DNA from: an uncultured Kofleriaceae bacterium
Lineage (GTDB): Bacteria > Myxococcota_A > Polyangia > Haliangiales > Haliangiaceae
Direction: 5' to 3'
Assembly: GCA_964617845.1 (NCBI GenBank)
Contig: CAZUAR010000003.1
Span: forward strand, 69,908-133,907
Length of the DNA stretch: 64,000 nt
The notes under the pieces are model-generated. The model had not been told where the DNA came from. It saw only the letters and a list, made by a program, of their open reading frames with translations, and did not search any database. The position numbers and the translations under genes were made by a program. Below are positions 20,554 through 48,356 of the stretch, piece after piece; the first letter of the stretch is position 1; every line of letters starts with the position of its first letter.

Positions 20554-21456
20554 ATGGACGAGGATTTCGACCTGCGCGAGCTGACCGACGCGAAGATCGC
20601 AGAGGTCCCCTGGTACTTCCGGCTCGGTCGGTACCTGTCGAAGCGACGGATTCGCGGGGGCGATCGCTTGCTGGCGGAAGCGAGACGCCGCGGGATGCTC
20701 GACCAGCTCGCGATCTACTCGCTCGGCGACGTCGAGTTTCGCGTGCCGCTGTGGCGGCCGTGCAACGAGTGGCTCGAAGACGACGTCCGCGACTACGAGG
20801 CGGCGTTCATGCGCGAGCTCGCGGCGGCGGTCTGCCGCATGTCGGGGGAGGTCACGCTGATCGACTGCGGCGCGGATATCGGCACCGTGTCGGCGCACCT
20901 CGTCGCCCGCTGCAAGAACGTCAAGCGCATCTTCGCGTTCGAACCGAACGCCGCCGCGTTCAGCGTGCTCCGCCGAAACCTGTCGGCGATGAGTCTGGAG
21001 ACAGATGCGCGAAACATGGCGGTCGGTGACTTCTGCGGTCGCGGTCGCTTGATGCGCGCATCGCAGGACCGCAGCGCGCACGCGATGTACATCGTCCCCG
21101 ATCCGGCGGGCGGCATCGGCGTTCAACGCGTTGACGACCTCGGGGTGCGGGACACGGGTTCGTGCGTGATCAAGATCGACGTCGAAGGAACGGAAGCGTC
21201 CGTCGTCGCGGGCGCCGCGGAGACGATCCGCCGTGCTCGCGAGGTGATCGTCGCGTTCGAGGCGCACCCGAAGGTCGCGAACCGCCTCGGTCGCGATCCG
21301 ATCGAGGTGATCGCGGCCCTCACCCAGATCCGCGCTGGCTTCACGTTCGACGTCGACACGCGGCCCTCGATGGCGCTGAGCCCGCACGCGCGGGTGTTCG
21401 ATCAGCTTCCTCCGACGCGCGTGTACAACATCATCGCGTCCGCGCGTTCTTCGTGA
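20554..21456 (+). CDS. FkbM-family SAM-dependent methyltransferase
   Basis: VTLIDCGADIGTVSAHL ... VIKIDVEGTEASVV is the typical FkbM signature. A GGAGGG RBS precedes the ATG. Confidence 0.8.
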   Translation: MDEDFDLRELTDAKIAEVPWYFRLGRYLSKRRIRGGDRLLAEARRRGMLDQLAIYSLGDVEFRVPLWRPCNEWLEDDVRDYEAAFMRELAAAVCRMSGEVTLIDCGADIGTVSAHLVARCKNVKRIFAFEPNAAAFSVLRRNLSAMSLETDARNMAVGDFCGRGRLMRASQDRSAHAMYIVPDPAGGIGVQRVDDLGVRDTGSCVIKIDVEGTEASVVAGAAETIRRAREVIVAFEAHPKVANRLGRDPIEVIAALTQIRAGFTFDVDTRPSMALSPHARVFDQLPPTRVYNIIASARSS

Positions 21457-21582
21457 CCGAGCCGTCGATACGACGACTTACGCCGCGTGGATCATGGAGG
21501 CGTCTGCTCCGACGGAGACAGGCGCGCTCTTGCGGATAGAACTTCGGGGGCGGTCGGCCGTAGATGAGTTTCTACTTGCCGC

Positions 21583-21621
21583 GGCGCCACGAGGACCTTA
21601 CAAAGGGCGCCATTGTTTTTT
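21583..21621 (+). terminator. weak candidate intrinsic terminator (GGCGCC-N17-GGCGCC stem followed by ATTGTTTTTT)
   Basis: Seen in the sequence about 125 bp after the FkbM stop. The stem is short and the loop long, so confidence is low. Confidence 0.25.
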
Positions 21622-22096
21622 CCTCCGACCGGGAGGGCTTCCGTGACTCCATGCATCAACCAGTGAGTACATACCTTCGTACCCGGGCGTCGCGGAGCGT
21701 CCGCATCCCGGTCCGGAGTCTGACGTAACGACGCACGCCTGCGTGACAACTTCTCTGGTGGGAGCAGTTGAGGCGTGTCGCCCGGCACTGCGCCCCCTTC
21801 CGCAAGTGGTGCCTTCGAGCTGATTGGATCGTCTCACGCCGTCGACTTCGGTCTCGCGTCGGATCGAGAGTGCCGCTGATCGCAAGGTCAGCTTGTAGCT
21901 CGATCCGAGCAGATCGTCTCCGGACCAGGCGCGCTACCGGTCATCTACGTTGCCTCTGACGAGCGGTGCTCGCGGCTCTTGCGCGCGCTGCCACCCGAGA
22001 GGCCATGGTGATGATCGAGAGCGCAGCGGGCTCCTCGACGCACATTTACGCGCGGCTATCGCCGCGCAACCCGATTTTGTGGACACTCGACTACAC

Positions 22097-25000
22097 AGGA
22101 TGCGCGACCTCGAGCTCTCGCGGCGGATCGACGACGGCATCGTCACGCCCGACGATCTCGCGCCGCTGGCGATGACCCCGCTCGGTGGTCGCGGCGTGTT
22201 CCTCGGCCGGCTCGCGGCGCTCGCGGCGCACGAGGATGCGGCGCTGCGCACGGCGGCGCTCGCGTGCCTGGCGGGTGCGCGCGGAATGCGAGCTGTGCGC
22301 GCCATCGTCGCGCGGCTCGATGACGCCGACGAGAGGGTGCGAGCAGCGGCGGTCGACGCGCTGCGCGTGACCGCCCGCGAGGCGCCGCATCGCTACGCGC
22401 ACGCGCTGTTTCACCCGCGCGTCGACGTGCGGCGGATGGCGCTGCACCAGGTGCCGTCGGGGATCGCGGAGGTCGCGTCGTACCTGCGCGCGGATCCCGA
22501 GTGCGCGGATCTGATCAAGGACGTGCCGTGGCCCGATCCGAGGCTGCCGCTCGTGTTCGACCTGCACGCGACGGCAATGCTCGGCTCGGCGGAGATGATC
22601 CGCATCGTCGCGTGGTCGCCTCCGCACGAGATGAGGTCGTTCCTCGAGCGCGAGCACGGACGCATGGAGTCGGAGGTCGACGCGTACCTCGAGCAGTGCG
22701 CGCGCGATCCGGTGCTCGTGCCCGCGCCGCGCGCGGATGCGATCGATCAGCTGTGGCGCGCGATCGCGGAGGCAGGCGCGTACGAGCGCGAGCTCGAGAT
22801 GGTGATCGTCACCGCGACCCTGGCGAAGAAGAAGAACCCGATCGGGCGGCGCATGGTGGCGTCGCTGCTCTCGCACCTCGCGCGCGATCCGAGGCCCGAG
22901 CTGTGGGGCGCGCTCGCGACGCTGGAGCCGCGCTCGCTCGACTGGGCGTGCTTCGATCGCACGCAGGCGGACGCGGTCGCCGCCGCGCTGATTCGCTTCA
23001 AGTGGCCCGTGCGCCCGCTCGCCGCGCAAGCGCTGCGGCTGTTGAACCTCGCGTGGGTGAAACGCGACCTCGCGCTCGCCGCGGCGATCGCCGGCCTGTT
23101 GCCCGCGAAGCGCCTGCACCGGCTCGCGGAGGCCTTCGGCGAGCCCGCGCTCCTCGACGCGCTCGTCGCGGACGATCGCGGATGGGTCCAGATCTGTCAC
23201 CTGCCGCAGGAGAAGCCGCCGCACGATCAACGCTGGCTCGCACAGATCGAGCGCACGCGGCCCGCGCGAACCGCGGAGCTGGCGGGCATCGCGCTCGGCA
23301 TCTTCAGCGGGAAGCGGCTCGAGGCGTTCATCGATCAACTTCAACGCCGCACGCGCCCGCTCGCGTTCATCGCGCTCGTGCGGCGCACCGCGCTCGAGGC
23401 CGACGATCCGCGCATCCTGACGGCGGCGGCGATGATGTCGACGCGGATCGATCGCGCCGGGTGGACCGAGGTGCTCGCGGCGCTGCTCGAGCCGGGCACG
23501 CCGCAGCGCGAGCTCCTCGTCGCGATCATCGTGATCCGCGCGCTCGCCGACAACATGGTCAAGACCGTCGCGACGGCGCTGTCGGATGCCGCGCTCCTGC
23601 GCGTCGTCGAGATCGTGGACACCGTCGACGGCGAGGACGCGCTGCCGCGCAGTCGCGAGGTCGCGCTCGCCGAGGCCGCGTCGCTGCGCAAGGACCCCGC
23701 GCTGCTCCTGTGGTCCGCGAAGATCCTCGCGCCCGCGACGTCGGCACCCACCGTCGTGGTGCCGCCGGTGCGCGCGAAGCGAACGCTGACCGAGGACGAG
23801 CAGAGGGAGATCATCGCCGCGCCGCTCGCCAAGCTCGAGGAAGCGCTCGCACCCGCGCTCGGCTCGCCGACGGCGGGGCTCGTCGACGCGCTGTCGCGGC
23901 GCGCGGCGCATCCGAGCGTCGCTGCGTGCGCGGCGCTGCTCGGGTGCGTCGATCCGATGCCGGAGGTCGCCGTCCAGCTCGACCGCTTCGCCGAGCGCAC
24001 CGCGAAGTTCGAGTCCGCGCTCGACAACGCGGCCGCGGCCGCGTGGGGCACCGGCCGCCCTGCCCTGTCGAACCTGCCGCTATTCGAGGACTCGCAGCTC
24101 CCGGCGCTCGTGCACGCGAGACTCTGGCGCTGGGAAGCGCACACCGAGCAGCTCGCGAAGTGGATCGCGCGCTTCGGCAGTGCGCACGGCGCGCTGACGG
24201 CGATCGCCGGGCTCGAGGGCTGGCTCGCCGTCTCGACGATGTGGCGCGGCATCGCGGAGGTGCTCGTGTTCGCGCGCTATCGCGATCGCACGCGCTTCTT
24301 CGCCGAGGGCACCGAAGCGCTCGCGAAGTACGCGGCGGAGCGAGTCGACCAGCACTTCGGGCTGCAGGCGGCACGCGTGTGCGTCGCGCTCGTCGAGGGT
24401 GGCGCCGTGCCGATCACGTCGATCCGCTCGATCATCCTCGACCGCACGCCCGACGCCGACGCGGAAACGCGCGATCAGCTCGCGCGCTTGATCCGCCTCG
24501 ACGGCATGCCGACGCCGCCGCGCACGATCGAGATCGGCATCACGTCGGCATCGCTGATCGAGAAGATTCGCTCCACGAAGGATCTCGACGCGCTCGAGCG
24601 GTACTGCGCCGACGCGCGGTTCGCGGTCGTGCAGGAAGCGGTGCTGATGATGCTCACGATGGGCGAGCACGGACAGCTTCGCCTCGCGCACCTGCTCGCG
24701 CGCCTCGGGGAGCTGCCCGCGCCGGTGCCGCTGCTCGCGAGCATCGCGCTGTGGGACTCCCCCGCGGCGCTCGACATCGCGCGCACGCTCGCCGCAAACG
24801 CGAACCTTCCCGCGGAGTGGCAGTTCCATCTGTGCCTCGGTCTCGGCGACATCCAGCGCGCGATCGCGGCGATTCACGTGCCCGGTACGAGCTGGTTCCG
24901 CCGCACCGACTGGGACGCGCTGACCAAGCAGATCACGCTCCGCGAAGCGGCGCTCGCGCTCGTCGATGCGCCGCATCACCACGCCTACGCGCGCTCCGTC

Positions 25001-27118
25001 GAGGTGCTCCTCGAAGATCCGCACACGAACAACCCGGACCTGCGCTCCGCGCTCCATCGCTTCCTCGAGGTCAGCTCCGCGCGACCGACGCACCTGCGCC
25101 GCACCGTCGCGCGCCGCCTCGCGGTCGACATCGACGATCTGCTCGGCATCCCGATCCTCGTCGACGAGCTGATCGACATCGGCCCGGGCGGCTCGAGCTG
25201 GATGGACGCCCTGTCGCGCAGAGCCGGCGAGCAGATCGCGCGCGGCGTCGTCGAGGCCGCGCTCGTCGGCGGTCACGGCGTGTGCGCCGAGAAGCGGCTG
25301 TGGGAGATCCTCGCGAAGCTGGATCACGCGAAGCTGCTCGAGCAAGAGGTCGCCGCCGAGCTCTACGCGCTGATGCTCGACGAGGCGATGACATCGCAGC
25401 TCCGCAACCTGGCCGCGCAGCACGCGATCGGTTCGACGCTCGCCCACTCGCGCTTGCTCGCGGTCGCCGAGGTCTTCGCCTGGGGCGTGCGGCGCGGCAT
25501 CGAGCTGACCGGGCGCCTCATGCGGTTCCACCTCACGAGCAAGGAGAAGGACCTCGGCCACACGTACCTCGACGGCAACCAGGTGTTCGTGTCCGCGCTG
25601 CCGATGCTGCGCGGCGAACCGCACGGCGTCGACGTCGTCGAGGGCCTCGTGCTCCACGAGCTCGGGCACCACGCGTACCACCGCGGCGAGCAGGCGCAGG
25701 CGCTGTGGAAGCAAGCGCACGCCGAGGGCATCGGCCACCTGCTGAACCTGATCGCCGACGAGCACCTCGAGCGAAACCTGCGCGCGCTCGATGCGTCGTA
25801 CGGCGATCGCCTGAAGCGCCTCGACGCGTACGCGTTCCAGCACGCGCCCCAGGAGCTGAGGCTCCACGCGCTGCTCGAGACGCTGCGCGGCTCCGCGGCG
25901 AGCGCGCTCACCGGCACCGAGCTCGGCGTCGCCTTCGACGAGCTGTGCGTCCGCCTCCGCCGCGGCGCGATCCTCACGCAGCTCGAGAAATCGGGCCACC
26001 CGCTCGCTCGCTTCGCGCGCGCGCTCCGCATGGGGCTCGGCAATCGCCATGGCGATCCGCTCGTCGGCGCCGCGCTCGATCTGTGCGGCCGCGATCTGCG
26101 CAAGCACGACATGCAGGGCCTCTACAACCTGACGAAGCAGGTCGCCGCGATGTTCGGAGGCGCGGTCTCCGTCGCCAAGGTCTTCGGTGGGCCCGAGGGC
26201 CTCGGCTTCGGAGAGCGCGACGAGGACGTGTTCGCCGGTGGCATCGACGACGACGTCCTGCAGCGCGAGGTCGAGCGCATCCTCGATCCGAAGCGCGGCA
26301 AGGGCCCGCGCAAGCCCGGCGAGATCGATCGCCTGCAGATCAACGTCAACCCCGACGAAGACTTCGAGCGCATCACGAACGTGCGCAAGATCAAGGGCTC
26401 GCCCGAGGACCATCGCCGGCTCGTCGCCGAGGTCAACCGCCACTCCATTCGCCTGCGCACGCACCTCGACGAGCTCGGCCTGCGCTGGCTCCCCGTGAAG
26501 GCGCGCACGAAGGGCCACGCCCTCGACCGCGGTCGCCTTCGCTCGCTGATCACGCACGGCGATCCGCGGATCCTGCAAGCGCGCACGCCGACGCGCCGCA
26601 CCGACCTCTTCCTCGGCACCATCATCGACTGCTCGGGCTCGATGTCCGCCGGCAACAACCTCGAGCGCGCGCGCAAGTTCGCCGTCCTGATCGCGGAAGC
26701 CGTTCGTCCGCTTCCCGGCGTCGAAGCCCGGTTCTTCGGCTTCACCGACTCGACGATCTACGACGCCGGCGACTCCGCGAATTGCAACGTGACCGCGCTC
26801 CGCTCCGAGGGTGGCAACAACGACGCCGCCGCGCTCTTCCACGCCGCGAACGTCGCGCTCTCCTCGCGCAAGCGCGCGCGCGTCCTCGTGATGATCAGCG
26901 ACGGCCTCCCGACCGAGTGCTCCGTCGCTGCGCTGCGCGGACTCGTCACCACGCTGACCAAGCGCAAGGGCATCGTCTGCGCGCAGGTCGCGGTCCGCGC
27001 CCTCGAAGAAGAGTGCTTCCCGAACTACGTCGTCCTCGACGACGCGGCCATCGAGACCGCGGTCGCCAAGTTCGGCCGCATGATCGGCGACCTCACCCGC
27101 AAGGCGCTCTCCGCCTGA
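22097..27118 (+). CDS. giant HEAT-repeat protein with an HExxH-like motif (HELGHHAYH) and a C-terminal von Willebrand factor A (vWA) domain
   Basis: N-terminal PBS-lyase/HEAT-like repeats (RVRAAAVDALRVTAREAP, VDVRRMALHQ). LVLHELGHHAYHRGE lies near residue 1180. The C-terminal vWA has a MIDAS motif DCSGSMS followed by GFTDS...MISDGLPTE. The start at ATG 22097 is uncertain; the ORF is open back to 21950. Confidence 0.7.
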   Translation, partial: RMRDLELSRRIDDGIVTPDDLAPLAMTPLGGRGVFLGRLAALAAHEDAALRTAALACLAGARGMRAVRAIVARLDDADERVRAAAVDALRVTAREAPHRYAHALFHPRVDVRRMALHQVPSGIAEVASYLRADPECADLIKDVPWPDPRLPLVFDLHATAMLGSAEMIRIVAWSPPHEMRSFLEREHGRMESEVDAYLEQCARDPVLVPAPRADAIDQLWRAIAEAGAYERELEMVIVTATLAKKKNPIGRRMVASLLSHLARDPRPELWGALATLEPRSLDWACFDRTQADAVAAALIRFKWPVRPLAAQALRLLNLAWVKRDLALAAAIAGLLPAKRLHRLAEAFGEPALLDALVADDRGWVQICHLPQEKPPHDQRWLAQIERTRPARTAELAGIALGIFSGKRLEAFIDQLQRRTRPLAFIALVRRTALEADDPRILTAAAMMSTRIDRAGWTEVLAALLEPGTPQRELLVAIIVIRALADNMVKTVATALSDAALLRVVEIVDTVDGEDALPRSREVALAEAASLRKDPALLLWSAKILAPATSAPTVVVPPVRAKRTLTEDEQREIIAAPLAKLEEALAPALGSPTAGLVDALSRRAAHPSVAACAALLGCVDPMPEVAVQLDRFAERTAKFESALDNAAAAAWGTGRPALSNLPLFEDSQLPALVHARLWRWEAHTEQLAKWIARFGSAHGALTAIAGLEGWLAVSTMWRGIAEVLVFARYRDRTRFFAEGTEALAKYAAERVDQHFGLQAARVCVALVEGGAVPITSIRSIILDRTPDADAETRDQLARLIRLDGMPTPPRTIEIGITSASLIEKIRSTKDLDALERYCADARFAVVQEAVLMMLTMGEHGQLRLAHLLARLGELPAPVPLLASIALWDSPAALDIARTLAANANLPAEWQFHLCLGLGDIQRAIAAIHVPGTSWFRRTDWDALTKQITLREAALALVDAPHHHAYARSVEVLLEDPHTNNPDLRSALHRFLEVSSARPTHLRRTVARRLAVDIDDLLGIPILVDELIDIGPGGSSWMDALSRRAGEQIARGVVEAALVGGHGVCAEKRLWEILAKLDHAKLLEQEVAAELYALMLDEAMTSQLRNLAAQHAIGSTLAHSRLLAVAEVFAWGVRRGIELTGRLMRFHLTSKEKDLGHTYLDGNQVFVSALPMLRGEPHGVDVVEGLVLHELGHHAYHRGEQAQALWKQAHAEGIGHLLNLIADEHLERNLRALDASYGDRLKRLDAYAFQHAPQELRLHALLETLRGSAASALTGTELGVAFDELCVRLRRGAILTQLEKSGHPLARFARALRMGLGNRHGDPLVGAALDLCGRDLRKHDMQGLYNLTKQVAAMFGGAVSVAKVFGGPEGLGFGERDEDVFAGGIDDDVLQREVERILDPKRGKGPRKPGEIDRLQINVNPDEDFERITNVRKIKGSPEDHRRLVAEVNRHSIRLRTHLDELGLRWLPVKARTKGHALDRGRLRSLITHGDPRILQARTPTRRTDLFLGTIIDCSGSMSAGNNLERARKFAVLIAEAVRPLPGVEARFFGFTDSTIYDAGDSANCNVTALRSEGGNNDAAALFHAANVALSSRKRARVLVMISDGLPTECSVAALRGLVTTLTKRKGIVCAQVAVRALEEECFPNYVVLDDAAIETAVAKFGRMIGDLTRKALSA

Positions 27119-27807
27119 TGGCGCTCTCGAACATCGAGCTGCTGTCGCGCCAGGTCGACCTCGATCCGTACGGGCTCGCGATCCTCGTCACCGATACGAG
27201 CCACGCGATCCGCACCGGCGCGGACTTCCCGTCGCATGTCCTGTCGTCGATTCGCTTCGCGTTCCTCGAGCTGCCCCGCCGTCCGCCACCGGAGCGCCCA
27301 CACGTCCTCGATCGATTCGCCCCGATGCTCGATCTCGACTACCGCGCGGGACCCGTCTACGCGATTCCACCGTCGCTACCGCTCGATCCCTCGGCACACA
27401 TCGAGCGCGACCTCGCGCGCCTCGCCGACGCGAACCCCGGCAACTGGCACCCGGTCGAGTGGCGCGAGCTCCTCGACGGCAAGCTTGGTCCCGTCACCAT
27501 CGCCACCGTCGACGATCGCGTCGCCTCGATCTGTCACACGCCCTACGCGCCGACACGCGACATCGCCGAAGCCGGCGTGTGGACGCACGCGGACTTCCGC
27601 GGCCGAGGCCTCGCGAGCGCCACCGTCGCTGCGTGGTCACACATCGACTTCGGCGCGCGCCACCTGTTCTACTCGACCACTCACGACAACCTCTCGTCGC
27701 AACGCGTCGCCGCGCGCCTCTCGCTGCCGCTGCTGGGCTGGACGCACCGCCTCGAGTCACCACGGCCTCGGCGAGCACTGCACCCGCTCTGCAGTCTGCA
27801 GACGTGA
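27117..27807 (+). CDS. GNAT-family N-acetyltransferase
   Basis: The ATG overlaps the upstream TGA (ATGA coupling). The motif VWTHADFRGRGLASATVAAWS matches the GNAT acetyl-CoA-binding Q/RxxGxG/A signature. Confidence 0.7.
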
Positions 27808-27928
27808 CATCCATGGACGCCAACGCCGCTGGCTGTGCACCGCTCGTACATCGCAGGCGCCCCCGCGTTGTCCGTCCACGCACCTCCCCGCACCGAGCGC
27901 GGGCACGTGCATTGCTCGGTGCGATCGC

Positions 27929-28282
27929 ATGATTCGCGTTGCCGTCGCCCTCTGTCTGCTGGTTGGCTCCAGCACCCTCGTGGCCTGCGAAGGAGGCAAG
28001 AGCGGTGACGGGCTCGAAGAAGGAGTCACGCCCGCACCGGGCGGCGGCTTCTGCTGCCCGATCGATCCCGGCTCGTGCGACTGCTTCCGCAACGGCGGCT
28101 GGATCGCCGACCGCGCCGACACCTGCCCCGCCATCTGCGATCTCGCGCCCACGAACACCTCGATCAGGATCGACGAGCACGGCTGCGAGGTGCTGACCGG
28201 GCCGGAGTCCTGCCTGACGCCGCTGTTCGACGCGAGCGTCGATGCACCCGACGCCCCACCGCAGGAGCCGCAACAGCCGTGA
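27929..28282 (+). CDS. small Cys-rich lipoprotein
   Basis: MIRVAVALCLLVGSSTLVAC lipobox. 117 aa with a CCPIDPGSCDC cluster. Confidence 0.5.
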   Translation: MIRVAVALCLLVGSSTLVACEGGKSGDGLEEGVTPAPGGGFCCPIDPGSCDCFRNGGWIADRADTCPAICDLAPTNTSIRIDEHGCEVLTGPESCLTPLFDASVDAPDAPPQEPQQP

Positions 28283-28796
28283 TCGCAGCGGCCATCGCGA
28301 GGCGGTGATCGGCGTTCCACGGCGGGCCGAGCTTCTTGCCGGTCTCGCGCACCACCTTGTCGACGCCCGGCGCGGACAGCACCGTCTTTGCGTCGAACCA
28401 CACAATCCTCCACCCGAGCTCGCGCGCGGCCTTCGCCAGCGCCTGGCGATACATGATCCAGTCCGCGTTGTTCTGCGCCCAGTAGTCCGTGATGCGCTCC
28501 TCGATCGTCGCGGGCAGCTCGGGACACACGCGGAGCGCGATCGTCGAAATCTTCACGTCGCCCGCGAGTTCCTTCAACGCCGCGAGCGAACATTTCTCCG
28601 CCGACACGCGCACACGCTCGACGAGCGCCACGCCCTCGTCGAGCGGCAACAGCTGCGCCTCGGTGTGATGCGGGATCGCGGGCAAGCCGTCCTCCACCAA
28701 CGTGACGCGACGGCGATCCACGAGCGCGCCGTCCGCGACCGTCACCAGCACGGCCCAACCGCCGTGATCCGACACGCTGACGACTGCATTCACCAT
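28164..28796 (-). CDS. hypothetical protein
   Basis: 210-aa ORF with a natural-looking composition for the first about 170 aa. Its Arg-rich tail overlaps the convergent lipoprotein gene by about 118 bp, so the true 3' end may differ. Confidence 0.4.
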   Translation of the reverse strand: MVNAVVSVSDHGGWAVLVTVADGALVDRRRVTLVEDGLPAIPHHTEAQLLPLDEGVALVERVRVSAEKCSLAALKELAGDVKISTIALRVCPELPATIEERITDYWAQNNADWIMYRQALAKAARELGWRIVWFDAKTVLSAPGVDKVVRETGKKLGPPWNADHRLAMAAAITAVAAPAVGRRVHRRSRRTAASGRTPARSAPRSRARRS

Positions 28797-28805
28797 GCAG
28801 CGATT

Positions 28806-29108
28806 CTAGCGGACGAGGTCGTGATCTATCTCGTAGGCGCCTCGCGAGAACACATCGTCCATCCTCGGCCCGAACCCGCTCGTGATCGTCGCGTACGACT
28901 TCGCTGGATGCCCGCACAGCGATCGCACGAGCTTCACGTGCGTCTGCCCGCCACGCACCGCGATCGTCAGCGCGCGCGAGCGCCAGACGAACCCACTCGG
29001 CGCCGGATCGCACCTGCCCCGTTCGCCGACCAGCTCGTCGATAGCAGCACCAAGCGCACGCGATCGAGCGCGACCTCGATTGCCACGCGTGGCCACCAGG
29101 GCCGTCAC
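28806..29108 (-). CDS. small hypothetical protein
   Basis: 100-aa ORF ending 10 bp upstream of the next same-strand gene. No recognisable family. Confidence 0.2.
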   Translation of the reverse strand: MTALVATRGNRGRARSRALGAAIDELVGERGRCDPAPSGFVWRSRALTIAVRGGQTHVKLVRSLCGHPAKSYATITSGFGPRMDDVFSRGAYEIDHDLVR

Positions 29109-29169
29109 TCGATCGTTCCCGACCGCCAGCCGCTCCGCGCGAGATGGCCGATACTGTCAAGGGCACGCT

Positions 29170-29634
29170 ATGACGACGACGTTCGCGATTCACCTCCTGC
29201 GCCCTCGGTCTGGTTGGGTCGACGTCGATCTCACCCTCGGCGCGCATCGCGTCCATTTCGCCGCGTCGCACGTCCTGAACGATCCGGTCGAGGAGCTGGC
29301 GGGGTTCGGCTTGTTGCTCATGCAGCCACCAGACGTCGCTCGGCCATCCGTCAGGTTCTGGCTCGAACCGGCCGGGTACGAGCTGCTGGCCTCCGAGGAA
29401 GATCCCACCGAGCTTCGTCTTCGGTATGCGAAGAACGCATATCCGCGGCTCGACGATCCGATCGACGTGACGCGCATGCGTCTACCTCGAAGGACATGCG
29501 GCGCGGAGATCGCGCGCTGCCTCAGAAGCGCGAGCGCGGAGTTCGTCCAAGCGCGCAGCGAGAATCGCCACGCGTGGAACCAACCCTTCCCCGAAGAGCT
29601 CCTCTCGTTGCTGGAGTCGACGCTCCGCAATTGA
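29170..29634 (+). CDS. hypothetical protein
   Basis: 154 aa from ATG 29170 (MTTTFAIHLLRPRSGWVDVDL...). Mixed hydrophobic/charged composition typical of a globular protein. No family recognised. Confidence 0.4.
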   Translation: MTTTFAIHLLRPRSGWVDVDLTLGAHRVHFAASHVLNDPVEELAGFGLLLMQPPDVARPSVRFWLEPAGYELLASEEDPTELRLRYAKNAYPRLDDPIDVTRMRLPRRTCGAEIARCLRSASAEFVQARSENRHAWNQPFPEELLSLLESTLRN

Positions 29635-29646
29635 CGCCTTCGTTCA

Positions 29647-30384
29647 TCATCGACGCTTTGATTTCCGGCGGGGTAGTGGCCTGACCGCCGGAGCTTCTCC
29701 GAGCCGGAGCAAGCCGTGACGGCGCCATCCGACGCGCAGCAACCACACCGTCGCCGGCGCGCACGGGTTCAGCATCGACACGAGCTCGCGCTTCCACCAC
29801 GAATCGATCACGAGTGGCTGTGCCCACCCGTCGAACCACGCGGCGCTCGAGCACGGATCGAACCACGTCGGATCATCGAACGAGCTCGGCGCGTGATGAA
29901 GCGCGTTGTTCAGCACGTAGCGCAACGCGTTCCGCACCTCGGTCGGCGTCCGCAACGGACGGCAGTGATAACGATCACCAAACACGGATCCACGCCGACC
30001 TACGATTCGATTGATCGCTCTCGCGACGCGCACCTCGAACGCGGCGATCCCCGAGCTCCGCGCCAGGTCGTGCGCTGATTCGGTGATGAGGTGCAGGTGG
30101 TTCGACTCGACGTTGAAGTGAACGATGCGGAAGTCCGCGCGATGCGAGCGCGCGATCGCGTCGCGAATCGCGATCACGAATCGACGCTGTCGCAACGAGG
30201 GCAGCCCTTCGAGCAGCCGCAACGTGACGTGCTGCGGAAGAACCGATGCGGGGATCGATTCGCGCGCTTCATGGCCGACCCGCGACTTGCCACGCGGTCG
30301 GCCGGCGCCAGGACGCCAGCCACCGTGCCCAGACGGAACGCGTGCGTCATCGAATGTCAGTTGTGGTGATCGTCGACGACGCAC
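29647..30384 (-). CDS. IS200-like Y1 (HuH) transposase homolog (RAYT-like), second copy
   Basis: HuH motif HFNVESNHLHLITES. N-terminal GWRPGAGRPRGKS matches the RPGAGRP of the first copy. GTG start proposed at 30384. Flanked by about 30-bp direct repeats. Confidence 0.6.
   Translation of the reverse strand: MRRRRSPQLTFDDARVPSGHGGWRPGAGRPRGKSRVGHEARESIPASVLPQHVTLRLLEGLPSLRQRRFVIAIRDAIARSHRADFRIVHFNVESNHLHLITESAHDLARSSGIAAFEVRVARAINRIVGRRGSVFGDRYHCRPLRTPTEVRNALRYVLNNALHHAPSSFDDPTWFDPCSSAAWFDGWAQPLVIDSWWKRELVSMLNPCAPATVWLLRVGWRRHGLLRLGEAPAVRPLPRRKSKRR
29650..29683. repeat. flanking repeat copy 1 (ttgatttccggcggggtagtggcctgacc) with an internal hairpin TCCGGCGG-N13-CCGCCGGA
   Basis: Seen directly. 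A near-identical copy is at 30408..30438. Confidence 0.55.
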
Positions 30385-30407
30385 ACAACCGATCTCGCAC
30401 ACGAGTC

Positions 30408-30438
30408 TGATCTTGATTTCCGGCGGGGAAGTGGTCAG
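30408..30438. repeat. flanking repeat copy 2 (ttgatttccggcggggaagtggtcaggcc)
   Basis: Seen directly. About 27/30 identity to the copy at 29650. It lies immediately upstream of the transposase-like gene start. Confidence 0.55.
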
Positions 30439-30709
30439 GCCAAGTTGCTGATCACGCCGCGACGGCGATTTCGAAACTCTTCCATTCGCGCCAACGTCTT
30501 TGTTCCTCAAGCTGAGCTGCGAGGCCCCGGGGACGATCCCGCAATGATCGCTGCGGCTCATGCGGAGGCGCTACGCGCTCGCCGTTCTGAATCTTCCGCG
30601 CCATTCACAGACGGCGAATAGTGTCGACCAACACTTCGCTGCGACCATCGCGTTGGCAAAACCGAGGTCGCGGCCGTGAAGAGTCCCGTGACGTCGTCAG
30701 GTCGATGTG

Positions 30710-30760
30710 ATCAACACCAAAACAAATGCCCGCGAGGACCTCGTCGATCCCCGCGGGCTT
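30710..30760 (-). terminator. Rho-independent terminator of the rtcB-mvp operon
   Basis: On the minus strand, GCCCGCGGGGAtcgacgagGTCCTCGCGGGC (11-bp arms with one non-canonical G·T pair, 9-nt loop) is followed by AUUUGUUUUGGUGUU, 5 nt after the MVP stop codon. Confidence 0.65.
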
Positions 30761-30763
30761 CTT

Positions 30764-33244
30764 CTAGTCACCGTTGCCGTTCGTCAGCGTGAGCTTGTCG
30801 ACCAGCGGCTTGAGCGGCGTGTTGTGGAACAGGCGCGACAGCGTGTCTCCGAGCGACTCGCCCTCGACCACGCGCTGCACACCCCACGCCTCCGCCACCT
30901 TGACCAGCGTCTCGTGACGCGACAGCTGCATGAGCGCCTCGCTGAAGTTGCCCGACGCAGCCGTGAACCGCTGCACGGCGGTCTCGGCCTCGGCGCGCAG
31001 CAGCTCGATGCGCTTCTCCTGCTCGCGCGCGAAGAAGTGCAGCTCCTGCTCGCGCTCGCGCTTCACGCGCTCGATGCGCTGCCCCAGCTTGAACGACTCG
31101 ATCGACTGCTCCGCCTCCACCAGCTTCTTGCGCTCGTCGGTCTCGCGCAGCGTGTTGGCGATGCGAGCGAGAGCCGTTGCCAGCTCGCTCGTTGCCAGCT
31201 CGCGCGCGAGGTCGTCGGTGCGCATCTTGGTGAGGGCCTTGACCTCCGCCGTTTCGCGCATGATCGCCTCGCGCTGCTTGGTGACCGAGAGCTCGCGGCT
31301 CAGGTTGGACACGTCGATGTTCGACTTCACGACGTCATGCTGTGCCGCCTCCAGCAGCGCGCGGATCTTGTCGTCCTTCAGGGCTACCTGGAGGACGTCG
31401 ACATCCTGGATGCGCATGCCGTTGGCGGGGAACTCCATGCCGGCGATCAGGGAACGGATCGTGTCCGTCGAGGTCGAGTAGAACTGCTCGACGGTCAGCT
31501 TGCGGACGGCGCCCTTCAGCGTCGAGCGAACGTGGTCGCACAGGTACTTCACGTAGTTCTCGACGGCGAACCACTTGAGCGGGTCGCCGGCGAAGCTCAC
31601 GCGGTAGGACATGCGCAGCTGGACATAGACGTGGTCGAAGGTCTCGACCTCGACGATGTCCGTGACCTGGTTGTTCTCGACGCGAAGGAACGGAGTCTCG
31701 AGGAGCTTGTCCGTCGTCTTCGGCTTGCCCGTGGAGAGCGTCAGCGCCTCGATGGTCTCGTCGTAGTCGAGCAGCACCGTGGTGGGACCCACCTCGACGC
31801 GGCGGCGGCCCGTCTTCGCCGTCACGAGGACTGCGTAGCCGGTCCACACCGCGAGCTGCGGGGCACCCTGGTACTTGTTGTCGAGCAGCGCCATGCGCGG
31901 CTGCGAGTACGTCGACGCGCGAGAGAACTCGTCGGCGACGAGCGCCTGGTCACCCGAGACGCGAGACGACTCCATCACCATGCCGGCCGCGGCCTTCGCC
32001 ACACGCTTGCCGCCGCGCTCCACGTCGCCCTCGGAGAGGACGCCCTGGCGCGTGGTGGGAACGTTGTGGATCAGCTGACGCAGCGACTGGTTGTAGGCGA
32101 GCGCCTCGGCGTTGCCGGGGTACCAGAGCGCGCACTCGCGATCGGTGAGCACGCGGCGGACGATCACTTCGTGACGCGGGTCCGGCAGGAGCATGGCGGG
32201 GCCCCGCACCGTCCGGATCGCACCCGTGAGGCGGTCCATCACGTAGCGGGCTTCGCCCGCGGGGATGGCCGTCGCGAAGTGCTTCGCCTTGCCGTCGTAC
32301 TTGATCGCCGAGTGCTCCTCGCGCGGGAAGTAGATCGCCGTGTCCTTGCCGGTGATGAAGAGCTCATCGCCGGCGCGGTGCGCGACGCCGTTCTCCGTGT
32401 AGTCCGCGATCACCTTGATGTGAAGGCCCTGGATCTCGTTGAGCTCGACCGCACGGAACTTCTTGCTCGGACGACCTCCGTCGTCGCGAGCTTCGACGAA
32501 CCGCTCGGTGGGCAGCGGAAACACGACCTGCGGACCGACCTCGTAGCGCTTCTTGCCGTTCTCGTCGACGAGGATCGCGTACTCGAGACGCTCGAGGGTC
32601 AGCGCTTCACGCGCGTACCACTCGCCGTCGCGAACGACCTCGATTCCCGTCGGCGGGATGTAGAACGAGACTTCGGTGCCGCGGATGATGAGCTGCTTGC
32701 CGACCGTGAGGTCCTGCGGCGCCGACGACACGGCCGTTGCCGGAGCAACAACCTCGCCGTCGACAGCCGCGGGCTTCACGACCGCCTTGCTCCAGTTCTT
32801 GCGCGCCTCGTCTTCGTTGTAGACGCGGACGAGCAGGTACTGGTTCGAGCGCAGGTGATGACCCTCGACGACCTCGGCTGCCTGACCCGGCCACAGTGCA
32901 AACGTGGCGGGGCCCGGCACGATGATCGTGCGACCGATCTCCTGTTCGGCGCTCGGCTGCGCGCTTCCCTCGTCGGGATGCTTGTTCCCCTTCGCCGGGT
33001 TGCGAAGGATGATGTAGTGACCTTCCGCTGCGATCGGCGAGATACGCATCGCCTCCTCGAGTGAGGACGCCGTGCGGAACGTGTTCTTCTCCGCGTCGTA
33101 GATCACCGGCCGCTCCTGCGCGGTCGGGTTGATCACGGTCGGACCCGAGTACGTCTTCACGACGCCCTTGGTCACGTCCTGCATGTACGCGTAGCTGCCG
33201 GGCGGCAGTACGAGGTCCCGCTTCTGTACTTCTGACATTGCCAT
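30764..33244 (-). CDS. mvp: major vault protein (MVP) homolog
   Basis: 826 aa. The N-terminal MVP repeat pattern (MAMSEVQKRDLVLPPGSYAYMQDVTKGVVKTYSGPTVINPTAQERPVIYDAEKNTFRTA... with repeated beta-rich about 55-aa vault repeats) is followed by a shoulder and a long coiled-coil cap-helix region (ELSVTKQREAIMRETAEVKALTKMRTDDLARELA...). Architecture and length match eukaryotic MVP, whose bacterial homologs are rare. Confidence 0.88.
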   Translation of the reverse strand: MAMSEVQKRDLVLPPGSYAYMQDVTKGVVKTYSGPTVINPTAQERPVIYDAEKNTFRTASSLEEAMRISPIAAEGHYIILRNPAKGNKHPDEGSAQPSAEQEIGRTIIVPGPATFALWPGQAAEVVEGHHLRSNQYLLVRVYNEDEARKNWSKAVVKPAAVDGEVVAPATAVSSAPQDLTVGKQLIIRGTEVSFYIPPTGIEVVRDGEWYAREALTLERLEYAILVDENGKKRYEVGPQVVFPLPTERFVEARDDGGRPSKKFRAVELNEIQGLHIKVIADYTENGVAHRAGDELFITGKDTAIYFPREEHSAIKYDGKAKHFATAIPAGEARYVMDRLTGAIRTVRGPAMLLPDPRHEVIVRRVLTDRECALWYPGNAEALAYNQSLRQLIHNVPTTRQGVLSEGDVERGGKRVAKAAAGMVMESSRVSGDQALVADEFSRASTYSQPRMALLDNKYQGAPQLAVWTGYAVLVTAKTGRRRVEVGPTTVLLDYDETIEALTLSTGKPKTTDKLLETPFLRVENNQVTDIVEVETFDHVYVQLRMSYRVSFAGDPLKWFAVENYVKYLCDHVRSTLKGAVRKLTVEQFYSTSTDTIRSLIAGMEFPANGMRIQDVDVLQVALKDDKIRALLEAAQHDVVKSNIDVSNLSRELSVTKQREAIMRETAEVKALTKMRTDDLARELATSELATALARIANTLRETDERKKLVEAEQSIESFKLGQRIERVKREREQELHFFAREQEKRIELLRAEAETAVQRFTAASGNFSEALMQLSRHETLVKVAEAWGVQRVVEGESLGDTLSRLFHNTPLKPLVDKLTLTNGNGD

Positions 33245-33253
33245 TCTCCTCTC

Positions 33254-34474
33254 CTAGCCCTTCACGCAGACGATCTGCTTCAGGGTGTAAACGACGTCGA
33301 CGAGGTCGGCCTGCGCCGCCATCACGTCGTCGATCGACTTGTATGCAGCAGGCGTCTCGTCGATGACGTCTGCGTCCTTGCGGCACTCGACACCCGCCGT
33401 CGCTGCGGCGTGATCCTCGAGCGTGAACAGCTTCTTTGCCTTCGTGCGCGACATCGAGCGGCCCGCGCCGTGCGAGCACGACGTGAACGACTCGGGGTTA
33501 CCCTTCCCGCGAACGATGAACGACTTCGCGCCCATCGAGCCCGGGATGATGCCGAGCTCACCCTCGCGCGCACGCACCGCGCCCTTGCGGGTCACGATCA
33601 CGTTCGCGCCGTAGTGATGCTCGAACGACACGTAGTTGTGGTGGCAGTTGACGGCTTCGAGGTGAGCGGTGAACGCCGGCAGCAGGCCCGTGTTGCGAAG
33701 CGCCTCGATCGTGGCCGCCATCATCAGCTCGCGGTTGGTGCGCGCGTACTGCTGCGCCCACTCGACCGCGTGCACGTAGTCGTCGAACAGCTCCGAGCCC
33801 TGCGGCAGGTACGCGAGGTCCTCGTCCGGCAGGTTCACGAACCAGCGACGCATCTCTGCCTTCGCGCGCTCGATGAAGTACGAGCCGATGCGGTTACCCA
33901 CACCGCGCGAACCCGAGTGCAGCATCACCCACACCGCGCCTGCCTCGTCGAGGCACAGCTCGATGAAGTGGTTGCCCGTGCCGAGCGTACCGAGCTGGTT
34001 CACGCGCTGCGCGTTACCCGCCGAAGCGTGCTTCGACAGGATCTGCGCGTAGCCCGGAGCGAGCTCGTCCCACGCGGCGATCGTGCGCGCCGGCGGCGTG
34101 CCGTACGCACCGCGGTCGTTCGCGCCGCCCTTGTCGGTGCGGCCGTGCGGAACCGCCGACTCGATCGCGAGGCGCAGCGCGCGGAGGTCATCCGGGAGCT
34201 GGTCCGCGCGAAGCGACGTCTTCACCGCCATCATGCCGCAGCCGATGTCGACGCCGACCGCCGCCGGGATGACCGCGCGCTTGCACGCGATCACCGAGCC
34301 GACCGTTGCACCGATGCCCGCGTGCACGTCCGGCATGACCGCGATCCACTGGTGAACGAACGGGAGCGCTGCCACGCGGCGCAGCTGCGCCTCCGCCTCC
34401 GGCTCGAACGGGACGCCCTGCGTCCACGCCTTGATCGGAGCGAAGTCGGTGTTGATGAGGTGGTAGTTCGTCAT
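33254..34474 (-). CDS. rtcB: RNA-splicing ligase RtcB (3'-phosphate/2',3'-cyclic phosphate RNA ligase)
   Basis: 406 aa. The conserved metal/GTP-binding motifs DIGCGMM, GTGNHF, HSGSRG and HNY...NCHHNY are all present. Its stop lies 10 bp upstream of the MVP start. Confidence 0.95.
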   Translation of the reverse strand: MTNYHLINTDFAPIKAWTQGVPFEPEAEAQLRRVAALPFVHQWIAVMPDVHAGIGATVGSVIACKRAVIPAAVGVDIGCGMMAVKTSLRADQLPDDLRALRLAIESAVPHGRTDKGGANDRGAYGTPPARTIAAWDELAPGYAQILSKHASAGNAQRVNQLGTLGTGNHFIELCLDEAGAVWVMLHSGSRGVGNRIGSYFIERAKAEMRRWFVNLPDEDLAYLPQGSELFDDYVHAVEWAQQYARTNRELMMAATIEALRNTGLLPAFTAHLEAVNCHHNYVSFEHHYGANVIVTRKGAVRAREGELGIIPGSMGAKSFIVRGKGNPESFTSCSHGAGRSMSRTKAKKLFTLEDHAAATAGVECRKDADVIDETPAAYKSIDDVMAAQADLVDVVYTLKQIVCVKG

Positions 34475-34486
34475 GGCGAGCCGGCC

Positions 34487-34506
34487 CTGTGCAGCTCGCG
34501 AACCAA
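34487..34506 (-). promoter_or_regulatory. candidate sigma-54 promoter (TGGttc-N5-cTGCA, GG-N10-GC spacing) for rtcB-mvp
   Basis: The reverse complement of 34489-34505 reads TTGGTTCGCGAGCTGCA, about 15 nt upstream of the rtcB ATG. Divergent rtcR encodes a sigma-54 enhancer-binding protein (known RtcR biology). The match to TGGCAC-N5-TTGCA is imperfect. Confidence 0.45.
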
Positions 34507-34581
34507 CCTGCTCGCTGTGTGATTGCCAACGGTTGCGATGTCTGTCGATATCGAAGGCGATAGCGTATTATCCTTTTGGAT

Positions 34582-36153
<1,572 letters not shown>

Positions 36154-37565: not shown

Positions 37566-37596
37566 GACATCCTCCTGAGTGCTTTCCTCCCTGGCG

Positions 37597-37611
37597 TTCC
37601 ACGGCGTGGAA
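37597..37611. promoter_or_regulatory. palindrome TTCCACG-g-CGTGGAA in the divergent intergenic region
   Basis: Seen directly between the TPR gene and the STAND NTPase gene, 28 nt upstream of the proposed ATG at 37639. Confidence 0.3.
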
Positions 37612-37638
37612 CAACCGTTCCGCGGTAGTTTCGAGCAC

Positions 37639-40600: not shown

Positions 40601-40719
40601 TGCAGCGTCGGATCGCCTACGCGATCCAGCAGATCAAGAGCTCCGCCCCGCCGCTCGGCGAGCATCTCGCAGCACGGATCCGTACCGGCACGTGCTGCAT
40701 CTACGACCCACACGCGTGA
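37639..40719 (+). CDS. STAND/MalT-like AAA+ NTPase with C-terminal TPR-like helical repeats and no HTH
   Basis: Walker A ISGEPGIGKTRLLEE, then Walker B LLFDDMHAADP and a GNPLFVEEL motif typical of LuxR-type large ATP-binding (MalT/LAL) STAND NTPases. A helical repeat region of about 700 aa follows. No DNA-binding domain is recognisable. Alternative GTG start at 37579. Confidence 0.7.
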   Translation: MDALVGRDRELAQLVEAARIASAGQRAIVMISGEPGIGKTRLLEEIAATIEQEGGTAAWGRTWEVGMTPAFWPWTQLLALLATPDDPAPELVGLDDRADAATRLARFDAVAVFLTRRAAHRPLALLFDDMHAADPSSLLLVEYLARQVRAARLLIAITARDGEAPPESEAALARIRRDARRIVVGRLAAEDVARFVGERADAAMIARVYELSDGNPLFVEELVACIEAHGDLDRVGQITGVRAVIRDRIARLPEVSATILGAGALAGREFRGVVVADALDIAPRDLDAHLAPALRLGVITRAGPDRYRFSHGLVAESLAEQGHVLHARLADALERLEGDDGASAIAHHRLAIAHLDPIAAATSAERAARVALAHLAFEDAAALLDRAIGALPDAPATRKQRAALICARAEALQHAGEHTTARELCDRAAELARETGDGVLLARIALARGIEFHFGSTDRGLVELLREALAAMPPGDSSLRARCLARLAAAEQPATDSRIPIEAARDAIAMARRIGERRTRLDVLHVAFAALIEYVPPQELDVLLRELFVLASSPGDRLIALRNRLRHCFVALELGDRTAFEAAAFAHAELAESIGMPRWLWPVKLIASMQATFEGRFAEAAALTSEAETIGAGDPQGERTFTYHRWATAWIATRPSATLARRVGECYAYARPVMSIVAALDEQDHATLHSAIAAATPLVEHDAFSATALADAIAMYRDRELAHRCYDLIAQQSCRIWVATMTGFALQDFADRCLLVLATVLERWDAVDQHARIALELARRLDAVPWIARIQADWATALDARGDRARADELWDAARAVAERLDMPGLAARCRAARAGHTEATAPHVPPTSIDVPATEELSISRDGALWVIRGRGTIARVRDSRGMQMLARLIGEPGCEVHAIDLDGDGGTADGGDAGEMLDPKAKAAYRKRLAELTQDLEEAEAWRDAERAERVRLEIDALARELSRAVGLGGRDRRVGAAAERARINVQRRIAYAIQQIKSSAPPLGEHLAARIRTGTCCIYDPHA

Positions 40720-43460: not shown

Positions 43461-44048
43461 ATGATCGCTCGCTCGGTGGTGTTCGCTGTCGTGCTCGTCG
43501 GTTGTGCCGCGCAGGATCAACAGGTCACGCCGAACTGGGCCGCTGCGCCACCGCCGCCGTACGGATACGGCACGCCGCAGCTGCCGCCCGCGGGCGCGCC
43601 GCCGCCGCCGTACGGTTATCCGCAGCCGGAGGTCTACGAGACGAGCGGCGTCTACCTCTCCGCGGGCGTGACCGCGAGCGCGGGCACGTATCCCGCGACG
43701 CCCGTGTATGAGGGTCACCCGGCGTCGAGCTGCAAGCTCGGTTCGGATGGTCGTCGAGCGTGCGGCTACGACTGCAAGCTCGGCTCCGACGGTGTCGCCG
43801 CGTGCGCGAGCGATCCGGGCGGCGCGTGCGCCCTCGGCGCGGATGGTCGCGTGTATTGCTCCGAGGGTCGCTCGCGCCGCGGTCATCGGCGCCACAGCGG
43901 CGCAAAGGCCGAGTGCAAGCTCAACTCGGACGGCACGCAGACGTGCGGGCACGGCTGCAAGCTCGGAAGCCGTGGACGCTGGTACTGCGCATCGGAGCCC
44001 GGCGGCACGTGCGGCTTGAACAGCGACGGCACGTACACCTGCTCCTGA
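43461..44048 (+). CDS. Cys-repeat lipoprotein (CKLGSDG-type repeats)
   Basis: MIARSVVFAVVLVGCA lipobox. The N-terminal PPPYGYP repeats are followed by six CKLGSDGxxACG-like cysteine repeats. Confidence 0.55.
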   Translation: MIARSVVFAVVLVGCAAQDQQVTPNWAAAPPPPYGYGTPQLPPAGAPPPPYGYPQPEVYETSGVYLSAGVTASAGTYPATPVYEGHPASSCKLGSDGRRACGYDCKLGSDGVAACASDPGGACALGADGRVYCSEGRSRRGHRRHSGAKAECKLNSDGTQTCGHGCKLGSRGRWYCASEPGGTCGLNSDGTYTCS

Positions 44049-44067
44049 GCGCGTCTACAATGCGCGC

Positions 44068-46489: not shown

Positions 46490-48356
<1,867 letters not shown>

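Follow-up and report, generated by a model that had tools for sequence, protein, structure and literature searches.

A structured RNA, a giant HEAT/zincin/MIDAS protein and a displaced AAA+ ATPase as parts of a putative conserved module in an uncultured Kofleriaceae bacterium

The 64,000-nucleotide stretch of an uncultured Kofleriaceae bacterium analysed here (contig CAZUAR010000003.1, positions 69,908 to 133,907 of the forward strand; hereafter the window) holds a large folded RNA, the gene of a giant adaptor protein ending in a von Willebrand factor A (vWA) domain, and the gene of an AAA+ ATPase of the MoxR kind. These three parts exist, are conserved across phyla and are linked in position. 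With modest confidence, they are considered to form one copy of a conserved, so far undescribed three-part module. MoxR–vWA pairs are widespread, and their mechanism is understood in few cases, such as NorQD, CbbQO and RavA–ViaA. Literature searches returned no description of the giant protein family or of the RNA. The giant gene, the gap upstream of it and the acetyltransferase gene downstream of it had been pointed out before in a sequence-only reading of the window, whose observations are confirmed here with small corrections and whose interpretation is partly supported.

The giant adaptor and its displaced ATPase

The protein components of the proposed module are the following.

22100..27118, + strand: giant adaptor gene, 1672 aa
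22211..22465, + strand: HEAT repeats (aa 38–122), the second most conserved part of the giant protein
25487..26089, + strand: zincin-like metallopeptidase domain (aa ~1130–1330), with HELGH at 25655–25669 and the invariant DEHLER at 25757–25774
26597..27115, + strand: C-terminal vWA domain with a complete metal-ion-dependent adhesion site (MIDAS), DCSGS at 26627–26641
53711..54853, + strand: displaced AAA+ ATPase gene, 380 aa, an N-terminal domain of ~105 aa followed by an AAA_5 core

Two long open reading frames (ORFs), 21950..27118 and 22501..27807, overlap on the + strand. Third-position GC is 0.92 for 22100..27118 and 0.47 for the overlapping 22501 frame, so the first frame is the only coding one from about 22100, while the second is coding-like only past 27118, where its third-position GC is 0.85. 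The start is assigned to the ATG at 22100 because M1 is invariant, and the N-terminus MRDLELWRRL conserved, in 25 homologues from several phyla. The long + strand gene of the sequence-only reading therefore stands, although its length changes from 1670 to 1672 aa, and the HEAT region, which a start far downstream would have removed, is retained.

A first search yielded 70 full-length homologues of ~1620–1740 aa, labelled 'hypothetical' or 'vWA domain-containing', and when one genome was scanned for each species, 80 loci from at least five phyla came up. Their carriers are Kofleriaceae, Nannocystaceae, Polyangiaceae, Sandaracinaceae, Plesiocystis pacifica SIR-1 and Enhygromyxa, and besides these Planctomycetota (Gemmatales, Pirellulaceae, Phycisphaeraceae, Rhodopirellula), Bdellovibrionales, Holophagales and Vulcanimicrobiota. 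With the C-terminal 587 residues as query, an exhaustive phmmer search gave at least 376 clusters (50% identity) at E <= 1e-30, and all full-length proteins among its top 150 show the giant architecture. The fetched loci hold one copy of the gene each. The domain combination, described earlier as unusual, is real and is kept as a fixed architecture of ~1620–1870 aa, in the order HEAT repeats, ~950 aa without assignment, zincin-like domain, basic linker and vWA/MIDAS domain.

Searched as a single sequence, the giant protein gives sub-threshold Pfam matches to HEAT_2 (aa 38–89; 21.2 bits, cut-off 27.7) and VWA_2 (aa 1508–1602). The N-terminal HEAT repeats are borne out at the family level, where a profile of the 25 homologues matches alphaRep/HEAT solved structures over aa 40–122 (E = 5e-21), and 23 of the 25 members match HEAT_2 (best E = 2.6e-8). 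Besides these HEAT designs, the same profile search returned only a weak match to the CobT vWA domain. The middle ~950 residues have no matches and are the least conserved part of the protein. Neither NCBIfam nor PADLOC gave any match for the giant protein, and no peptidase, TROVE or defence family was found for it in Pfam, NCBIfam or PADLOC, with TROVE absent in 25 of 25 members.

Within the HELGHH motif (aa 1186–1191) and just after it, H1186, E1187, G1189, H1190 and H1194 are invariant in the 25 homologues, as is the segment D1220-E1221-H1222-L-E1224-R1225, which corroborates its earlier description as zincin-like. In the AlphaFold models (aa 1086–1672, predicted local distance difference test (pLDDT) 81; aa 1086–1400, pLDDT 85.9, predicted template modelling score 0.83), the HExxH segment is predicted to form the active-site helix of a zincin fold, and not an incidental, non-catalytic helix. 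Candidates for the third zinc ligand are the invariant H1194 and D1220, E1221, H1222 and E1224 on the next-but-one helix. No peptidase family was matched in Pfam at E <= 1 by any of the 25 members, and none in NCBIfam. Like the minigluzincins and M48 zincins (projannalysin, proabylysin, selecase, HtpX, BepA and Ste24), this domain places the HExxH helix after a small beta-sheet and holds an invariant acidic/His helix (DEHLER) ~30 residues on, where gluzincins have their third ligand; unlike them, it has no sequence-family match and is embedded in a 1672-aa protein beside a vWA domain. The giant architecture probably carries a protease site.

The C-terminal domain holds DCSGSMS at aa 1510–1516. 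D1510, S1512 and S1514 are invariant in the 25 homologues, and the invariant S1600-D1601-G1602 and T1605 fit the other MIDAS positions, so that the claim of an intact motif is upheld. The linker that precedes this domain (aa ~1400–1500) is modelled partly at low confidence. According to a charge analysis, made to find an evident RNA-binding surface, the giant protein is not basic overall, and its sole basic stretch is this linker (aa 1401–1500).

The ATPase bears a Walker A (GPQGCGKT) and a Walker B (FLDELN) motif, and matches Pfam AAA_5 (PF07728) with 53.7 bits (cut-off 22) over profile positions 1–139 of 139, and AAA_3 with 30.7 bits (cut-off 27). Against the sequences of solved structures its best matches are the AAA modules of midasin (5e-13), followed by NorQ and CbbQ, and it matches at the level of GvpN, NorQ and CbbQ. 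In the annotated loci, a gene of ~377 aa of the AAA/AAA_5 type lies directly 3' of the giant gene, and its product is 73–88% identical to that of the window's ORF 53711..54853. Across the loci with an ATPase directly downstream of the giant gene the identity is 62–88%, compared to 31–85% for the adaptor, so that the ATPase is by far the better conserved of the two. Among 71 loci with enough downstream DNA, 51 have the ATPase no more than 300 bp from the giant gene and a further 10 have it within 6 kb, in each case on the same strand; in the remaining 10 it is not in the available flank. The linked loci span Myxococcota, Planctomycetota, Bdellovibrionales, Holophagales and Vulcanimicrobiota. 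The co-occurrence of the giant gene with a MoxR-like ATPase, proposed for checking along with the sequence-only reading, is thus found in 61 of 71 informative loci.

Two defining features of a MoxR–vWA pair, a MoxR-clade AAA_5/AAA_3 ATPase and a partner whose vWA domain carries a MIDAS motif, are present, and another, adjacency of the genes, holds for the family and not for the window, where 26.6 kb separate them. Three of the ten flanks lacking the ATPase are those of L005, L008 and L010, which belong to the window's own clade (81–84% identity), so the pair has been split in this lineage. In L003, a contig 99% identical to the window, genes for a Y1 transposase and an rve integrase follow the acetyltransferase gene, and the contig ends there. 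A rearrangement has moved the ATPase 26.6 kb away from the giant gene in the clade of this genome, in surroundings with genes for transposase and integrase. The earlier reading had named the gene at 53711..54853 as the only MoxR-like gene of the window, 26 kb away; far from being unrelated, it is the orthologue of the usual downstream ATPase and the true partner of the giant gene.

In its present place, the ATPase gene directly follows a complete GlgE-pathway alpha-glucan cluster (44020..53683; a MalQ-like 4-alpha-glucanotransferase, GlgB, a TreS–Mak fusion and GlgE), and therefore sits in an unrelated metabolic neighbourhood. Directly after it starts a gene for a thrombospondin type-3 repeat protein (54854..55894) with a partial match to MtsC-like (MYXO-CTERM cohesion) proteins, which was not found beside the ATPase in other loci.

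A structured RNA in the upstream gap

The giant gene is separated from an upstream FkbM-type methyltransferase gene (20554..21456) by a gap of 643 bp (21457..22099), which is slightly less G+C-rich (0.65 versus 0.70–0.74). The sequence-only reading had taken it for an AT-richer noncoding leader of 640 bp that could hold something complex. The gap and its lower G+C content are as described, and the suspicion of complexity was justified; 'noncoding' does not do it justice, since a conserved structured RNA fills nearly all of it.

21686..22042, + strand: large structured RNA, ~357 nt (RNAalifold on 13 Kofleriaceae leaders)
21686–21696 with 22032–22042, + strand: 11-bp closing helix that bounds the RNA
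21707–21718 with 21918–21929, + strand: 12-bp second long-range helix
21674..21853, + strand: part matched by covariance model R1 (cmsearch, 169.7 bits, E = 7e-38)
21733..21820, + strand: cross-phylum core, with hairpin domains P1 (21733–21778) and P2 (21780–21820)
21757–21761 (GGUGG) with 21800–21803 (CCGC), + strand: loop–loop pseudoknot, here in a 4-bp register containing G·U, with CCACC in most relatives
22047..22077, + strand: short G+C hairpin (GCGCGGC-uauc-GCCGCGC) and then a TTTT run, 23 nt before the ATG, with which the RNA may end as in a terminator or attenuator

Compared by blastn with the fetched loci, the gap shows 70–86% nucleotide identity over ~130–180 nt where the giant proteins are ~50% identical, and a 40-nt core also matches Polyangiaceae, Phycisphaeraceae and Gemmatales. 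The aligned leaders differ by hairpin-sized insertions, indels of 1–2 nt and compensatory changes. The window and 83 loci (1.5 Mb) were searched with the covariance model R1, which is based on 15 Kofleriaceae sequences. The model matched significantly once in the window and exactly once in each of 59 of the 84 sequences, and the match invariably lay in the gap before the giant gene; most of the sources without a match have no such upstream DNA.

The secondary structure is supported by two alignments. In an alignment of 49 instances, 92.7% of the cells are paired versus 37–50% with the partners slid, both partners vary in 35 of 42 pairs, and 188 double-change cells are found versus 54±8.5 in shuffles (0/500); this alignment was fitted to the covariance model, which favours the structure. 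The second one, of 13 full Kofleriaceae leaders, was made with MAFFT and is blind to structure. Here RNAalifold gives 71 pairs, of which 33 change on both sides, with 93.2% of the cells paired versus 33–48% when slid, and 92 double-change cells versus 28.8±4.8 in shuffles (0/500). The result agrees with that of the first alignment, and the two long-range helices come in addition. The pseudoknot is an exact 5-mer complement in 32 of the 49 instances (4.7 expected), and its variants covary: GGCGG with CCGCC, GAUGG with CCAUC (3 of 3) and AGUGG with CCACU. The abundance of G·U pairs assigns the RNA to the + strand.

A search of Rfam 15 (4227 covariance models) at E <= 1 with the instances of the window, L048 and L055 (Plesiocystis pacifica SIR-1), from three lineages, returned matches at chance level only, namely Mcr7 at 0.35 and models of microRNAs or long non-coding RNAs. 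The core was also considered as a small ORF and rejected: indels of 1–2 nt, which are not triplets, separate the conserved blocks, the ..FSGGSS.. frame meets a TGA in the window, and the compensatory changes in the stems and the many G·U pairs, which fit the + strand only, speak for an RNA. With its covarying pseudoknot and its occurrence in at least four phyla, it looks like a new class of large non-coding RNA.

A metagenome search with a 23-nt core pattern found 12 loci. Seven have at least 0.9 kb of sequence downstream, and five of these encode the N-terminus of the giant protein there, one of them together with the ATPase.

Partner RNA, leader RNA and other readings

As for the role of the RNA, there is a slight lean towards a dedicated partner whose 3' end would also limit read-through. 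By analogy with known ribonucleoproteins, such an RNA may be a component bound by the adaptor, as partner, scaffold or substrate mimic, a proposal with close to even standing. The RNA would be made with the operon, and its final stem and U-run would be what restrains read-through. A purely cis-acting switch role is a close rival to this partner role, and one to be taken seriously. Somewhat doubtful, although well worth weighing, is the fuller form of that alternative, in which the RNA is solely a 5' leader (a riboswitch or an attenuator responsive to a protein or ion) and the proteins are an ordinary MoxR–vWA maturation chaperone that, like NorQD, puts a metal into a client enzyme or assembles it.

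The size of the RNA (~360 nt), its multi-domain structure and its 5'–3' closing helix count for a partner, and it is far larger than typical aptamers, which speaks against a mere leader. In two unrelated lineages, L039 (9535–9647) and L081 (9555–9666), the core occupies the gap where it is usually found but is encoded on the strand opposite to that of the giant gene, with scores like those of other distant instances, and in L039 no credible gene was found downstream of the core on the strand of the core; a core kept in this orientation with no gene after it counts against a cis-acting leader. In L048 (Planctomycetota; 9894–9963), the related L052 and the metagenome locus L090, further conserved blocks such as CUUCGGGAAGCGGCG follow the core, and the RNA ends in a textbook terminator, a long perfect hairpin with a run of U5–6, located 100–200 nt before the start codon. 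Their RNA is therefore about 350–400 nt long as well, and a terminator so far from the ATG again favours a partner over a leader. In L054 and L082, of the Sandaracinus type, the RNA is separated from the giant gene by a further gene that encodes 816 aa (7536..9983 in L054), which also counts for a partner. The product of this gene is cysteine-rich, with CDxxxxxxPGAxExCDGxDNDCDG repeats, and looks secreted. A suggestive precedent, by analogy, is Ro60, a HEAT-ring protein with a vWA/MIDAS domain that binds Y RNAs, whose genes lie on the same strand no more than 4 kb away (PMC4201824).

The leader role draws its support from position and from the 3' end. With two exceptions, every instance found lies directly before the giant gene and on its strand, and the spacing from core to ATG is steady (190–270 nt). 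In the sense direction 16 of 44 loci show a stem with a T-run after it, versus 5 of 44 in the antisense control, mostly 190–240 nt after the core, a result of a looser scan made for this analysis that gives partial support. A generic scan for sigma-70 promoters and intrinsic terminators over 21300–22250 called nothing, including the hairpin at 22047..22077. Concerning the proteins, NorQD and CbbQO are MoxR–vWA chaperones for metal insertion or remodelling (PMC13036017). However, no client enzyme gene is conserved beside the module in the four annotated loci, and an adaptor of 1670 aa that includes a zincin domain is a good deal more than NorD or CbbO.

Several findings weigh against a three-part module with a partner RNA. 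The evidence is computational throughout and all structures are predicted. Binding of the RNA by the giant protein is proposed by analogy alone, since no RNA-binding domain was detected in the protein and only its linker is basic. In Kofleriaceae, the closing helix and the U-run lie 20–40 nt before the Shine-Dalgarno/ATG, which leaves no room for a separate promoter. The strand GUCGCGG, moreover, can pair locally or with the distal 3' strand: the shared 5' strand at 21686–21700, GGCGUCGCGG, forms either a local GCGG/CCGC hairpin or the closing helix with 22032–22042, both pairings show compensatory changes, and, being mutually exclusive, they suggest a conformational switch. In L011, upstream DNA is present and holds no match to the RNA. 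Three metagenome loci, L089 (1244–1266), L091 (1025–1047) and L096 (1402–1424), have the exact 23-nt core and no match to the giant protein in the 1.0–2.5 kb available; the gap may be longer in these loci, or else other genes too may be accompanied by the RNA. (L089 has a G+C content of only 51%.) Lastly, with its motor 26.6 kb away, the module may work differently or be decaying in the window, though both genes are intact.

A quite different reading would make a functional pair of the giant protein and the acetyltransferase encoded after it.

27118..27807, + strand: GNAT acetyltransferase ORF, 229 aa; Acetyltransf_3, 26.2 bits (cut-off 25.4)

The sequence-only reading had recognised this GNAT gene, which is borne out by a Pfam match just over the cut-off and an acetyl-CoA-type RGRGLA motif; a partial AAC(2')-II-like match falls far under its own cut-off. 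It had also described an ATGA overlap, from which translational coupling and acetylation of the giant protein or its ligand were proposed. The overlap exists in the form TGATG, as the giant gene stops at TGA 27116–27118 and the GNAT gene starts at ATG 27118–27120, with the single A at 27118 in common. This 1-nt overlap, which is also present in the 99% twin L003, the coding-type composition and the RGRGLA motif speak for a pair. Against it, GNAT is found in only 2 of the 80 genome loci, L003 and L005; in L005 it is 12 nt from the giant gene instead of overlapping; it is absent from L008 and L010, two close relatives (83–84% identity of the giant proteins) that share the DNA following GNAT in the window; and it sits in the slot held by the ATPase in other lineages. 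The expected co-conservation of the two genes is therefore not seen, acetylation fails as a general feature because GNAT is present in only 2 of 80 loci, and a functional pair is very improbable. The GNAT gene is a lineage-specific, recent insertion in the slot vacated by the ATPase, and its coupling to the giant gene is incidental.

Equally improbable is an anti-phage or conflict system of the vWA–MoxR kind, with the zincin as effector and the RNA as sensor or guide. Ternary vWA–MoxR conflict systems with HEAT/TPR scaffolds and occasional metallopeptidase effectors have been described, with an enrichment in bacteria of multicellular type, myxobacteria among them (PMC7159879), and the ATPase weakly matches bpMoxR (E = 0.0015, 18 bits, cut-off 27). 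However, PADLOC gave nothing for the giant protein and weak matches at P-loop level for the ATPase, and no third, VMAP-type component is conserved in the four annotated loci. The fixed architecture, the single copy per locus and an ATPase 62–88% identical across phyla are unlike fast-diversifying defence genes, and outside the window's clade the locus does not lie in mobile or defence islands.

Downstream of the GNAT gene, 27808..30763 has a poor coding signal. For its equivalent in L003, the annotation lists a 117-aa ORF, a weak Y1 transposase and an rve integrase; Pfam at 1e-5 gave nothing for 29647..30561 (- strand). This segment probably consists of mobile-element remnants that mark the rearrangement by which the operon was split. 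It is followed by a gene for a bacterial homologue of the Major Vault Protein (MVP; 30764..33253, - strand; MVP_shoulder 1e-20, Vault_3 4e-12), directly after which come RtcB (33254..34567, - strand) and the divergent RtcR (34564..36153, + strand). An MVP gene within an RtcB/RtcR RNA-repair cluster is unusual. Within the window's clade, and nowhere else, these genes neighbour the giant gene: L010 has them, L005 has them inverted, and the other ~75 loci lack them nearby. A place for them in the module was rejected, their adjacency being treated as coincidental. Further on, 37579..40719 encodes a protein of ~1046 aa with an N-terminal AAA_16 (STAND-type) ATPase domain, and similar proteins are encoded near the module in L026 and L080.

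Proposed mechanism and relation to known systems

For the three-part module, a mechanism can be proposed by analogy with NorQ–NorD, CbbQ–CbbO and Rea1/midasin. The ATPase would form a hexamer, dock the C-terminal MIDAS/vWA domain and pull on the adaptor. In NorQD, a finger of the vWA domain enters the pore of the hexamer and the ATPase remodels the linker of the adaptor (PMC13036017). The element remodelled here could be the basic and partly low-confidence linker (aa ~1400–1500). The MIDAS metal site and the HEAT repeats may hold a target, and the zincin site may cleave, or bind metal for, either that target or the adaptor itself. A more ambitious version, put forward tentatively, sees in the module an unrecognised bacterial ribonucleoprotein machine, in which the ~360-nt RNA would be bound by the HEAT/zincin/MIDAS adaptor and be worked on, or used as a scaffold, by the midasin-like motor.

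The module resembles midasin (Rea1) in its very long linker, its C-terminal MIDAS domain and its AAA_5-type motor, whose best matches among solved sequences are the midasin AAA modules (E = 5e-13). However, midasin is a single chain of ~5000 aa with six fused AAA modules, whereas the motor is here a separate, single-module protein of 380 aa. Midasin has neither a HExxH domain nor a dedicated RNA gene, no Ubl-domain ligands were identified in this module, and the sequence identity of the MIDAS domains is only 17–18%. The arrangement that defines midasin, six AAA modules and a MIDAS domain in one polypeptide, is thus not found, and the likeness is confined to the MIDAS domain and the AAA module.

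Like NorQ–NorD and CbbQ–CbbO, the protein pair consists of an AAA_5 ATPase and a larger adaptor with a vWA/MIDAS domain at its end, encoded in a two-gene operon, and NorD is among the top structural matches of the giant protein, as NorQ and CbbQ are among those of the ATPase. Unlike these systems, the adaptor gene comes first, the adaptor is 2–3 times larger and carries HEAT repeats as well as a zincin domain, the ATPase is extended by an N-terminal domain of ~105 aa, no nor or cbb client gene is linked, and a conserved RNA is attached.

The combination of HEAT repeats and a vWA/MIDAS domain in one protein is shared with Ro60/Rsr and its Y RNA (and with TEP1 and the vault RNA), as is a structured non-coding RNA that is encoded beside the protein, usually on the same strand, and whose 5' and 3' ends pair (PMC4201824). 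Membership in the Ro60/TROVE–Y RNA group was tested and rejected: no TROVE match is found in the 25 giant-family members, and the RNA has no tRNA-like module and no match to the Y RNA models of Rfam. Ro60, in turn, has no AAA+ partner and no zincin domain.

Regarding the RNA itself, OLE, GOLLD, ROOL, HEARO and raiA are RNAs of more than 300 nt with multiple helices and pseudoknotted conserved parts, recognised by covariation, and the RNA described here is like them in these respects. OLE RNA is co-transcribed with, and bound by, dedicated protein partners. The differences are that the present RNA has no match in Rfam 15, is associated with MoxR–vWA genes, and is found in Myxococcota, Planctomycetota and other taxa.

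The protein pair thus appears to be a new MoxR–vWA variant with midasin-like features, and the RNA a new family. What the giant proteins add to the MoxR–vWA kind is a fixed architecture of giant size that probably includes a protease site, and, among solved structures, their MIDAS domain and their motor are both closest to those of eukaryotic midasin. No description of a large, dedicated structured RNA attached to a MoxR–vWA pair was found in the literature searches aimed at it. For annotation, the giant gene, the gap upstream of it and the ATPase 26 kb away are to be read together, whereas the acetyltransferase is a local add-on whose translational coupling to the giant gene is a recent accident in this lineage. 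The RNA also provides a handle on an opaque protein family of at least 376 clusters at 50% identity, whose members are labelled 'hypothetical protein' or 'vWA domain-containing protein'. If the ribonucleoprotein machine proposed above were real, it would be a prokaryotic counterpart of the midasin-type or Ro/vault-type ribonucleoprotein remodelling systems, present from Myxococcota to Planctomycetota.

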